NCBI GenBank assembly: GCA_963762145.1 | Contig: CAVXJS010000019.1 | Coordinates: 128,001-192,000, forward strand | DNA from: an uncultured Candidatus Rokubacteria bacterium | GTDB taxonomy: Bacteria > Methylomirabilota > Methylomirabilia > Rokubacteriales > CSP1-6 | Length of the DNA stretch: 64,000 nucleotides | Direction of reading: 5' to 3' | In this document: positions 11,776 through 15,050 of the stretch, in pieces | Numbering within the stretch: position 1 is the stretch's first letter | Layout: every line of letters starts with the position of its first letter | Program-made: the position numbers and the translations under genes | Notes under the pieces: model-generated | What the model was told of the DNA's origin: nothing | Database searches by the model: none | What the model saw: only the letters and a program-made list of their open reading frames with translations

Positions 11776-12803
11776 TCACGCGACGCGCCGGATCCCCGCC
11801 GCGTCATCGCGCTCCCAGCCGAGCGCGGGCGCCACCACCTCGGCGACCAGCTCGATCGACCGCAGGATGAAGGGATGCGGCGGATCGATCGAATGCACCT
11901 GCACCGTGAAGTCGGTCGAGCGGGCGAGCGCGCTATCCGCCTGGAGCGAGGCGATCACATCGTCCGGTGTGCCGAGATGGACATTGAAGGCGCCGATCAG
12001 GTCGCCGCACCGATCGCACTCGCCGGTCGCGCGGCCCGATCTGGCCAGGCGCGCGCGCTGACGCTCGAGCCCGGCTTCGGCGAAGCGCAGGGCCTCCGTC
12101 GCGGTCGTCGGCGACGAACACGGTGCGCGAGGCGAGGATGCGCGGCTCGCGGCCCTCGGGCAGCGCCGCCAGATAGGCGTCGATCATCGGGTTCTGGATC
12201 TCGGCCAGCGACAGGTCGGGCGCGTCGGCCGGCCGCGGCTGCGTGCGCGACAGCATCAGACCGTCGCCCGCCGCGCCGGCCCGCCTGGCCCCGTCCACCG
12301 TGAACGTCGCCTGCCAGATGCGCTCGACCAGGTGCGGAGTCGACGGATACAGCCGGTCGCCGCCGGGCAGCGGCCGCCCCGCCCAGGCGTCGCGCAGCAC
12401 CTGGAGGTGCCCGGCGAGCAGCGTCCCGCGCTCGGCGCTGTCCAGGCCGAACGCCTCGAACGCCGAGAGGTTGCCGCCCGGCCCGACGCCCACCTCCAGG
12501 CGGCCGCCGGACATCAGGTCGAGCACCGCGGCGTCCTCGGCCACCCGGATCGGCAGCTCCAGCGGCAGGGTCACGATCGCCGTTCCGAGGCGGATGCGCG
12601 AGGTCTGCGCGGCGACCTGCGCCAGGAAGACGAACGGCCCGGGCAGGCCGCCTTCGTCCTCGTGGAAATGGTGCTGGGCGACCCAGGCCGAGTCGAAGCC
12701 GCAGCGCTCGGCATGGACGATCTGCGCGGTCGCCAGCCGGTAGCGCTCGGCCGGCGTCCGCCTGATCGAGCAGGCGGGTGAAGAAGCCCAGGCGCTTCGG
12801 CAT
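11776..12803 (-). CDS. FMN-dependent luciferase-like monooxygenase (KPN_01858-like); frameshifted
   Basis: MPKRLGFFTRLLD, AWVAQHHFHEDEGGLP, PIRVAEDAAVLD, QVHSIDPPH...LRSIELVA spread over three frames. Confidence 0.85.
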
Positions 12804-12880
12804 CGAGGAGACAGTGTCCGAGATCCGCCGGACTACCGCAAGGGTCGCGGTGATAAGATCCCGCCCAGGGAGGCTGTCCA

Positions 12881-13982
12881 ATGGTGACGCTGCTGACGGA
12901 GACGGGTGAGCACGGGGTGACGGGAACGGAGCCCTCGACCGGGGCGCTCTGGGTGTCGGCCAACGACGCGCTCCGGGCGACCGGCTGGGAGGTGAAGCCC
13001 GAGGGGCTCTGCAAGGGCCAGGTCTGCGTGCCGTTGCCCGCGGGGCGGGAACGCGAGCTCGTGGACGGCGGCCGGATCAACCTGGCCGCCCTCTGGCGTC
13101 ATCTCGGCCAGCCCGCGGTGCGGAGCGAGCGCGGCCACGCCTGGGTGCTCGGCGAGAGCGCGAAGGAGCGGAAGGCCGCGCTGCCCTCGCTCGAGGCGCC
13201 CGACTTCGCGCTGCCCGACCCATCCGGCCGCATGCACCGGCTGTCCGACTACCGCGGCAAGAAGGTCTTCCTCGTCACCTGGGCCTCCTGGTGAGGGTGC
13301 CGTCGCGACCTGCCCGGGTGGCAGGCGCTCCAGGAGGAGCTCGCGGGGCATGACTTCGTGGTGATCGCGGTGGCGATGGATAGCCGCGAGGGCGATCCGC
13401 TGCCGTGGATCGACGCGGCGAAGCCGACCTATCCCACGCTGATCGATCGCGAGCATCGGCTGGCCGAGCTCTACGGCATCGTGAACGTGCCGCAGGCGGT
13501 GTGGATCGACGAGGCCGGGCAGCATCGTGCGGCCCGCCGAGTCGGCCGGAGCCTACGAGGGCTTCCGTCAGATGAATCGCGCCACCCGCGAGTTGCCGGA
13601 GGAGGTGGCCCAGCGCACCGCGCGGGCGAAGGCGCTGTACCTGGACGCGATCCGCGACTGGGCGCGCAACGGCGGGCGGAGCGCGTACGCGTTCACCCCC
13701 GAGCAGGCGCGCGCGCACCTGCCCGCGGTCACCGAGGACGCGGCGACCGCGCAGGCCCTGTTCCGGCTCGCCCAGTTCCTGATCCGGCACGGGGAGCAGG
13801 CGGAGGCGGAGCGCTGGATCCGCGAGGCCAGCCGCCTCCACCCGGACTCCTGGTGCATCTGGCGGCAGGGCGCCGGCGTGACCGAGCTGGGCCTCGCCGC
13901 CCAGCCGGACTTCTGGGCCCGGGTGGACGGGCTCGGCGCGAAGCGCTACTACGCGCCGGTGGACATGCCGGGCATGCCCTAG
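12881..13982 (+). CDS. Selenocysteine-containing TlpA/ResA-like redoxin (WASW-U-GC) with N-terminal extension and helical C-terminal domain; separate frameshift near 13520
   Basis: APDFALPD...LSDYRGKKVFLVTWASW-TGA-GCRRDLPGWQAL...VVIAVAMD...LYGIVNVPQAVWIDEAG runs in frame across TGA 13292-13294; SECIS-like hairpin directly downstream. Confidence 0.85.
13305..13328 (+). promoter_or_regulatory. Bacterial SECIS-like stem-loop
   Basis: GCG-(A bulge)-CCTGCC-[CGGGT loop]-GGCAGG-CGC; the G-containing loop starts 20 nt after the UGA. Confidence 0.7.
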
Positions 13983-13994
13983 CCGGCCGTCTCC

Positions 13995-15050
13995 GTGGAG
14001 AGCCCCCGCTTCGGCCTCAACCGCTTCGACTCGCGCTCGGTGGACGCATTTGCGGCCGACGTGTGCCGCGCCGAGCAGCTCGGCTGGGACGCGGCGCTCC
14101 AGCCCGACTCCCAGCTCCGGCGCCGCGACACGTACGTGCTCCTGGCCGCGGCGGCCCGCGCGACCGAGCGCATCACGCTGGGTCCGCTCCTGGCCAATCC
14201 GGTGAACCGGCATCCCACCGTGACCGCGTCCTCCATCGCGACGGTCGACGAGCTGGCGCCCGGCCGCGTGCTCCTGGGCTGGGGGGTGGGGGACACCGCG
14301 GTGCGCCTGGCCGGACTCAGGCCGGCGCGGGTGGCCGAGCTCGAGGCGGGCACGCGGCTCATGCGCGCGCTGCTCGCGGGCGAGGCGGTGGAGGTCGGCG
14401 CGGCGCGGCCGGCGTGCTTGCCGCATCACCGGCCGGTGCCGGTGTGGATCGCGGCGGGCGGGCCGAAGACCCTGCGGATGGCGGGCGGGGTGGCCGACGG
14501 CGTGTTCATCCGGGTCGGGACCCATCCGGCCAACATCGCGACCGCGGTGAGCGCGATCCGCGCCGGCGCCGCGGCGGCGGGCCGCGACCCGGCGTCGGTG
14601 AAGCTCGGCGCGATCTTCCACACCGTCCTGGTCGACGAGCCGGCCCGCGCCCTGACCATGGCCCGCTCGATGGCGGCAGGGTACTACGAGTACTCGCCCG
14701 CGCTCTTCGACCCGCCCGCGCTCCGGTGGACCGGGCCCGATCCGGAGCGGCTCAAGCACGACCGCGGCGTATGGCCCGACTTCCACCACGCGACTGATCT
14801 CGAGGCCAGCGGCAAGGTCGTGGACTTTCTCCCGACCGAGGCCGCCGACGCCTTCAGCCTCCGCGGGGGAACCGGGGAAGTGGCCGAGCGTCTGCTGGCC
14901 GCCCTGCGCGCCGCGCCCGCCACGTTCGAGCACGTCGTGCTGCACCCGATCCCGGACCCGAAGTGGCCCGCGGATCCGGAGCGGGACTACACGGCCCGCA
15001 TCGCCCGCGAGGTCCTGCCCCGCGTCCGCAAGGAGCTCGAGAAGACCTAG
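13995..15050 (+). CDS. LLM-class flavin/F420-dependent oxidoreductase (Mer-like)
   Basis: AEQLGWD...PDSQL...TERITLG...NPVNRHP...VWIAAGGPKTLRMAGGVADG. Confidence 0.85.
   Translation: MESPRFGLNRFDSRSVDAFAADVCRAEQLGWDAALQPDSQLRRRDTYVLLAAAARATERITLGPLLANPVNRHPTVTASSIATVDELAPGRVLLGWGVGDTAVRLAGLRPARVAELEAGTRLMRALLAGEAVEVGAARPACLPHHRPVPVWIAAGGPKTLRMAGGVADGVFIRVGTHPANIATAVSAIRAGAAAAGRDPASVKLGAIFHTVLVDEPARALTMARSMAAGYYEYSPALFDPPALRWTGPDPERLKHDRGVWPDFHHATDLEASGKVVDFLPTEAADAFSLRGGTGEVAERLLAALRAAPATFEHVVLHPIPDPKWPADPERDYTARIAREVLPRVRKELEKT

Follow-up and report, generated by a model that had tools for sequence, protein, structure and literature searches.

The thioredoxin-fold proteins of the ResA/TlpA/DsbE group (CcmG, cd02966) are extracytoplasmic and carry a membrane anchor or signal peptide, and in E. 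coli YbbN/CnoX a thioredoxin-fold domain is followed by a tetratricopeptide repeat (TPR)-like helical domain. Redoxins of the UGC type, in which U is selenocysteine (Sec), have been in print as a selenoprotein family since 2008 and are curated; in the 2008 Global Ocean Sampling (GOS) survey, the 'Prx-like (UGC-containing)' family comprised 46 Sec sequences and 855 cysteine (Cys) homologues and was commoner in non-marine samples (PMC2398784). One Prx-like UXC sequence appears already in the 2005 Sargasso paper (PMC1088965). Likened by description, this published family is probably the same as NCBIfam NF041054, the 'ResA-like WAxxUGC motif-containing protein' (WAxxUGC_long, equivalog), a model of 354 positions with a curated cut-off of 300 bits. 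One Methylomirabilota genome was predicted to carry 63 selenoprotein genes, according to a review (PMC13188914), and the phylum is thus already known as selenoprotein-rich. Here, a gene of the NF041054 family is described at positions 12881-13982 of a 64,000-nucleotide stretch of DNA (the window; contig C19:128001-192000) from an uncultured Candidatus Rokubacteria bacterium, whose genome assembly comprises 6.26 Mb in 25 contigs (70% G+C; estimated completeness 88%).

Open reading frame (ORF) calling with translation table 11 gave a 137-aa ORF (12881-13294) that starts at ATG 12881 and ends at TGA 13292-13294, immediately after ...VTWASW. When this TGA is read as U, the translation runs W-A-S-W-U-G-C-R-R-D-L-P, the W-A-S-W-TGA-G-C motif spanning 13280-13300, and past the TGA the same frame encodes a redoxin (Pfam AhpC-TSA, PF00578, E 2.5e-19, 69.9 bits against a gathering threshold of 26; Redoxin, E 7.6e-12). 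After ...VWIDEAG (~13519) the frame of 12881 passes into Arg/Gly/Pro-rich text, and the homologous sequence IVRPAESAGAYEGFR... resumes in the next (+1) frame and extends to TAG 13980-13982. The span of 1102 nt is not divisible by 3; the intended 367-codon frame is interrupted. A preliminary description of the locus, made from the sequence alone, had placed the TGA at the position of the catalytic Cys, where homologues do carry TGA or a Cys codon. Its claim that the same frame continues as a redoxin stands with the Pfam matches as far as ~13519 and fails beyond, the frame never reaching 13982, at which the description had hinted only by suggesting that reads at 13520 be inspected.

The family assignment rests on a match to NF041054 in two frames, the first covering profile positions 8-192 (216.5 bits) and the second 192-352 (78.8 bits), so that nearly the whole profile is covered and is split at position 192 by the frame break. 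The next-best NCBIfam models, TlpA (60.7 bits) and ResA, both score ~60 bits, and none comes near NF041054. Intact orthologues score 284-325 bits, most of those from the same genus 284-308 bits with the TGA read through. The locus shares with the family the W-A-S-W-U-G-C motif, the near-complete profile coverage and, in intact orthologues, the three-part architecture and length; it differs in that its match is divided between two frames. NCBI gives the NF041054 name to a Cys-form relative in Myxococcus qinghaiensis. The WAxxUGC ResA-like family mentioned in the preliminary description thus exists and is matched by this gene; the U-x-C spacing, there called unusual, is instead the defining motif of the family, since the gene matches NF041054. 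With the GOS family the gene has in common a PF00578-type redoxin, the U-G-C redox motif and many Cys homologues; that family was more abundant in non-marine samples, and the sequencing runs containing the present stretch are labelled soil metagenomes, whereas an N-terminal CxxxxC domain and a TPR-like tail are not described in the accessible part of the survey (PMC2398784). A full-text literature search for the term 'WAxxUGC' returned no paper, and the searched terms were absent from deep-Sep (PMC12013277), BSepDB (PMC13326102) and Peng et al. 2016 (PMC5029168). The gene very probably encodes a real Sec-containing redox protein of an already described and curated family; the biology itself is not new.

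Profile searches were carried out in 41 genomes of the same order, this genome included, 20 of them from the same genus. All 39 NF041054 matches above 170 bits contain exactly one in-frame TGA, and the family gene is present in 20/20 same-genus genomes, with WASWUGC in all 20 fetched loci of relatives. A wider comparison used the 80 named loci, that is, the best 80 of 363 relatives, to which all counts over 80 refer. The codon at the TGA position is TGA in 53 of these and TGC or TGT in 27; reading continues in frame past WASW, and no homologue ends there. On either side of the codon, WASW and G-C-R show no or almost no variation among 71 aligned sequences. By record title, Methylomirabilota or Rokubacteria account for most Sec forms, and SAR324 and Alphaproteobacteria for some; Cys forms occur in Myxococcus, in Pseudorhodoferax and other Betaproteobacteria, and also in Acidimicrobiia, Solirubrobacteraceae, Planctomycetes, Verrucomicrobia and Dehalococcoidia, cultured Myxococcus and Pseudorhodoferax among them.

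The Sec machinery, the bases at 13292 and the behaviour of homologues had been named in the preliminary description as places at which its reading could be checked, and each agrees with it. A tRNA-Sec with anticodon TCA was located by ARAGORN at C9:756629-756726, adjoined by selA (577 bits) and selB (363 bits), both profile matches above the curated cut-offs; selB, selA and tRNA-Sec form one minus-strand cluster at C9:751777-756726. Two copies of selD were found above cut-off, one at C11:419505-420437 with one in-frame TGA, which probably encodes a Sec-containing SelD, and one at C14:136744-137655 with no TGA. The contigs that cover the codon in four public soil-metagenome runs (three studies) show no letter other than TGA at 13292-13294, and hence no TGC, TGT or TGG. 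The assignment of TGA 13292-13294 to selenocysteine is supported by these comparisons, as is the selenoprotein interpretation given in the preliminary description.

Other genes of related type were encountered during these searches. Two more redoxin-like matches in the genome, at C14:170622-170963 and C14:214148-214453, have one in-frame TGA each and may encode further thioredoxin-fold selenoproteins. A second, more divergent paralogue with a TGA is present in some related genomes (L025; G003:C338, G004:C67, G008:C5, G009:C23, G024:C160); the copy L025 is ~46% identical and is without the AYEGFR..MPE segment (~profile positions 205-233). Genes 65-100% identical to the query orthologue were found in metagenome-assembled genome records L045, L047, L049, L053, L056, L063, L064 and L074, with titles that include Acidoferrum, Limnocylindria, Deferrimicrobiaceae, Verrucomicrobiia, Nitrosotalea, Binatia and Dormiibacterota, and the Rokubacteria-titled genes are likewise 65-100% identical; the titles of those contigs look unreliable, through mislabelling or mis-binning.

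A hairpin of the selenocysteine insertion sequence (SECIS) type follows the TGA at the position and with the parts given in the preliminary description (13305-13328). Its upper stem has 6 bp, CCUGCC 13309-13314 with GGCAGG 13320-13325, and encloses a 5-nt loop, CGGGU 13315-13319, that begins 20 nt after the TGA and has G at position 2; the lower stem is weak (GCG 13305-13307 with CGC 13326-13328, A 13308 being bulged). The bacterial SECIS model, as quoted in a review, has a loop of 3-9 nt, an upper stem of 4-16 bp, a G in the first two loop positions, a distance of 16-37 nt from the UGA and a minimum free energy of at most -7.5 kcal/mol (PMC13188914). With a 5-nt loop that has G at position 2, a 6-bp stem, a 20-nt distance and -16.1 kcal/mol, the hairpin lies inside all of these limits. 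An Rfam scan of 13200-13450 gave no match at E <= 1. Folding, suggested in the preliminary description as a check, did yield the hairpin at -16.1 kcal/mol, but with an energy not better than that of shuffled sequences (z = 0.10); folding energy was dropped as evidence in favour of comparative data, and the significance of the hairpin comes from the comparison with relatives. All six upper-stem pairs are possible in 39/41 distinct Sec forms compared with 3/27 Cys forms, and local energies average -13.4 and -6.5 kcal/mol, respectively, a contrast that holds although both groups retain the peptide D-L-P-x-W-Q. Across 53 distinct Sec-form rows, 316 of 318 upper-stem cells are paired. The stem is closed by C-G in 47 rows and by U-A in 5, a two-sided change that occurs in several lineages, and none of 500 shuffles reached the observed covariation score. 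The lower stem is unpaired in 9-14 of the 53 rows. The conserved hairpin fits the published bacterial SECIS model.

The frame itself is broken at 13521-13523. The peptide VWIDE.G.(I/V)VRP.E lies in a single frame in 20/20 relatives' loci, and in a DNA alignment with the five nearest relatives all five are without the extra base, leaving one uncompensated base here at 13515-13523. Reads near 13520 had been recommended for inspection; every contig that spans the site in four public runs (three studies) omits one base at 13521-13523, the depths being 5.84 of 5.84 in run X1, 7.69 of 9.89 in X4, 11.1 of 11.1 in X5 and 22.3 of 22.3 in X7. Only 9 letters and 2 gaps separate the longest of these contigs (1888 nt, X1) from the window. 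In each of the four runs a long near-identical contig also omits a base at 12756, in the upstream luciferase-like gene (11933-12793, minus strand). The start of that gene, MPKRLGFFTRLLD..., lies in one frame and Pfam positions 17-235 in another, from which the C-terminal third is missing; it has an extra base at ~12756 and is probably broken again near 12100. The genome gives 110 luciferase-like matches, and several of them are successive parts of a single gene that lie in different frames (for example C10:172435-173338, C11:224566-225470, C8:64257-64753 and C9:190919-191879), so single-base frame breaks recur across the assembly. Breaks within the present gene were found in 4/23 'MFD...' records (L069, L103, L105, L107) and in 0/57 others (Fisher p = 0.0056); the 'MFD...' records have contigs of up to 4 Mb and appear to be long-read assemblies. 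In L069 further breaks are present in the next gene. An error of assembly is the probable source of the extra base at 13521-13523.

It is considered likely that 12881-13982 on the plus strand is one gene, that it encodes a cytoplasmic three-domain selenoprotein of ~366 residues belonging to NF041054, and that its frame break is an error of the assembly. Several points weigh against this. The summed NF041054 score (216.5 + 78.8 = 295.3 bits) lies just below the 300-bit cut-off, which only 12 of the 41 related genomes exceed. Selenium incorporation is a prediction from sequence comparison; as to expression, the RNA runs X15-X20 contained only 5-8% of the sampled sequence words. Because most Sec forms belong to a single phylum, shared ancestry inflates the Sec/Cys contrast and likewise the shuffle control; the conserved peptide D-L-P-x-W-Q dictates much of the stem, and the folding energy of the hairpin is no better than chance in 70% G+C DNA (z = 0.10; 100 of 200 shuffles at least as stable). 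The catalytic mechanism and the cysteine relay put forward below are suggested from sequence, the relay by the single divergent relative L091. As to the frame break, the public contigs are ~99.4%, not fully, identical, with 9 other letters in 1417 bases, and therefore come from another strain; rpoB and rpoC (8 kb together) are intact in the genome, so errors are not everywhere and the breaks are clustered, and two or three breaks within 2 kb could mean local gene decay.

The same observations on strain and clustering, together with the presence of the break in the assembly as given and the broken upstream gene (at 12756 and probably near 12100), speak for a genuine selenoprotein gene of this family that turned into a pseudogene recently in this strain, with a real insertion at 13521-13523, a truncated or garbled product and a luciferase-like neighbour that is decaying too. 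Such decay is nevertheless unlikely: no contig across the site in the four public runs has the extra base, the family match is kept in 20/20 same-genus genomes, mostly near full length and in one frame, both stretches remain 89-91% identical at the protein level to an intact orthologue and contain no further stops, of the five differences that separate the gene from the nearest contig, three are at third codon positions, as under continued selection, and isolated breaks at differing places in related long-contig records (4/23) look technical. That the +1 shift might be a programmed ribosomal frameshift regulating the amount of full-length selenoprotein has in its favour only that both frames are open and homologous over the junction. 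The shift is not conserved, a single frame being found in 20/20 relatives' loci, in 5/5 nearest relatives and in all near-identical contigs, and no slippery or stimulatory element was seen, the sequence being CAGCATC; programmed frameshifting is therefore rejected as exceedingly improbable. Very improbable, too, is an ordinary stop at TGA 13292 that separates a gene for a 137-aa N-terminal protein from one for a downstream redoxin/TPR protein, although table-11 calling gives exactly such an ORF (12881-13294), public collections hold products of 201-221 aa that start past the TGA (81 of the best 120 matches) and a Methylomirabilota protein cluster of ~140 aa exists. The TGA lies inside the active-site motif of a thioredoxin fold, and the sequences before and after it align in the same frame to single proteins with Cys at this position (27/80 loci). 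Each of the 39 strongest genome matches has exactly one TGA, the locus has a conserved SECIS-type hairpin and the genome the full Sec machinery, and a redoxin lacking the opening strands and the active site would not fold. With a single Sec-encoding gene as the favoured reading and an insertion error as the most likely source of the break, the organism probably makes the full-length protein.

The three-domain architecture of ~365 aa proposed in the preliminary description holds in intact orthologues, which have 365-367 aa. For structural analysis the closest intact orthologue (L045, the same protein as L038) was modelled from a 71-member alignment; it is 89.6% identical to the two window pieces, and coding part 1 is 89% identical to it. 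The model has a mean predicted local distance difference test (pLDDT) score of 94.8 and a predicted template-modelling (pTM) score of 0.92. Its redoxin domain (residues ~97-268) is predicted to be a TlpA-like thioredoxin fold, with matches to DsbE 3gl3 (Z 15.8, 139 aligned, root-mean-square deviation (rmsd) 2.2), ResA 2f9s (Z 15.1, 137 aligned, rmsd 2.4) and TlpA 1jfu (Z 12.8, 137 aligned, rmsd 2.6), and a Foldseek E value of 5e-11. Sec138 directly precedes helix 139-153 in the model, the position at the helix start at which the attacking cysteine of thioredoxin-fold enzymes sits. Resemblance to ResA, TlpA and DsbE extends to the extra elements of that family and to the W before the active site (WASW-U/C), and a conserved N-V-P stretch appears to lie at the expected cis-Pro loop. 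The protein differs from them in its active site, which is U-G-C or C-G-C, one residue shorter than CxxC, in 70/71 family members, in its folded 100-residue N-terminal domain and extra C-terminal helical domain, and in having no evident link to cytochrome c maturation. By inspection of the model, in place of a dedicated signal-peptide predictor, no N-terminal hydrophobic helix is present and the globular domain begins at residue 2; the protein is therefore probably cytoplasmic, unlike periplasmic ResA and TlpA. The peroxidatic site of peroxiredoxins has the form P-x-x-x-T/S-x-x-C. By inspection the Thr/Ser register is absent here, A135 lying three residues before U138 and W137 three before C140, so the site is not that of a canonical peroxiredoxin.

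Modelled alone, the N-terminal domain has a pLDDT of 88.1. It gave no Pfam family at E <= 1 and no Foldseek match at E <= 0.001; in the VIA-wide comparison the best hit was a hypothetical Synechocystis protein (Z 5.5, 85 aligned, rmsd 3.5), followed by usher N-domains (Z 4.0-4.4, 76 aligned, rmsd 3.3-3.8), all in the noise range of the tool, so the search shows neither a known nor a new fold. In the ESM Atlas, unannotated Actinomycetota clusters of 85-111 aa have feature scores of 0.92-0.95 to this domain (L045:3001-3300) and may be stand-alone versions of it. The C-terminal helical part gives sub-threshold TPR hits (20.2-21.8 bits against Pfam cut-offs of 23.5-27) and helical hairpins at residues 285-329 in the model. 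In its architecture the protein resembles YbbN/CnoX in having a thioredoxin-fold domain followed by a TPR-like tail, which suggests binding of a partner protein, and differs by the Sec-containing TlpA-like redoxin and the additional N-terminal domain.

Residues C44, C49, U/C138 and C140 are all present together in 70/71 family members. The exception, L091:3001-4098 (titled SAR324), reads W-A-S-W-U-G-A, has C44 replaced by S and C49 by I and lacks C140; its TGA and SECIS stem are kept. The joint loss of the three cysteines in this one sequence hints at a functional link between them. A mechanism may be proposed: SelB-GTP-Sec-tRNA would bind the hairpin on the translating mRNA and insert Sec at the UGA; Sec138 would act as the nucleophile and attack a substrate disulfide or an oxidised sulfur; a Sec138-Cys140 selenenylsulfide would then form and might be recycled by Cys44/Cys49 of the N-terminal domain or by an external thiol system; and the TPR-like tail might recruit a partner protein. 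A bolder version, that the N-terminal domain is an undescribed fold in which invariant Cys44-x4-Cys49 is a built-in relay recycling the strained U-G-C selenenylsulfide, making the protein a self-contained two-centre cytoplasmic selenoenzyme, upstream of a luciferase-like gene in close Methylomirabilota relatives, in place of a simple TlpA-like reductase, is tentative and somewhat unlikely. The coordinates of all features are collected in Table 1.

Table 1. Features of the selenoprotein locus and its flanks, in positions of the window.
Feature	Position	Strand	Remarks
Divergent upstream luciferase-like monooxygenase gene, also frame-broken	11933..12793	-	Pfam matches in two pieces
Shine-Dalgarno-like GGGAGG	12868..12873	+	7 nt upstream of ATG; seen in sequence, putative function
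Coding part 1 (frame of ATG 12881)	12881..13522	+	Residues 1 to ~214; Sec codon is residue 138
N-terminal beta-rich domain	12881..13180	+	Residues 1-100; conserved Cys44 and Cys49 (LCKGQVC)
Thioredoxin-fold redoxin domain	13169..13685	+	Residues ~97-268 of intact orthologue; frame break falls inside
Sec codon TGA (U138) in W-A-S-W-U-G-C	13292..13294	+	Translation, Sec/Cys comparison, public contigs
SECIS-type hairpin	13305..13328	+	Folding and comparison of relatives
One extra base, in CAGCATC, shifting frame +1	13521..13523	+	Translation, profile split, contigs, relatives
Coding part 2 (next frame)	13524..13982	+	Redoxin end, helical TPR-like tail, TAG 13980-13982
Luciferase-like monooxygenase gene, 12 nt downstream	13995..15050	+	Pfam Bac_luciferase E 1e-42

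Neighbouring genes were compared across the 80 loci. Clustering of stop-to-stop ORFs was of little use for finding conserved neighbours, since the top clusters (10-18 loci) consisted for the most part of off-frame ORFs from GC-rich DNA; of seven cluster representatives, six matched no Pfam family and the other was a CoA-transferase. A direct tblastn search for neighbours across the same loci found only the downstream luciferase-like gene, which follows directly, at ~10-40 nt, in 18/80 loci, all of them close relatives. Any operon link is therefore clade-specific, the luciferase-like gene being a possible operon partner within the close clade only.

The way in which such genes are recorded was examined in a collection of 5.8 billion proteins, from which the best 120 matches were analysed. 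Fragments of 201-221 aa, representing the part after the TGA, account for 81 of these; they are 78-96% identical, cover 55-60% of the query and are named 'hypothetical protein', 'TPR repeat protein' or 'AhpC/TSA family' at source. The 39 full-length matches (361-384 aa) are all 49-57% identical, and those with names include 'TlpA disulfide reductase family protein', 'redoxin domain-containing protein', 'peroxiredoxin' and 'ResA-like WAxxUGC motif-containing protein [Myxococcus qinghaiensis]'. The preliminary description had stated that gene callers split the gene, and all 81 close relatives are indeed fragments; the selenoproteomes of soil Methylomirabilota are consequently counted too low where family rules such as NF041054 are not used. 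Reading of the raw sequence can find a real selenoprotein that ordinary gene calling truncates, and the single-base frame breaks of this assembly can mimic pseudogenes. Cultured Myxococcus and Pseudorhodoferax, which have the Cys form, offer a route by which the substrate, the U-G-C centre and the N-terminal CxxxxC domain of the family can be studied.

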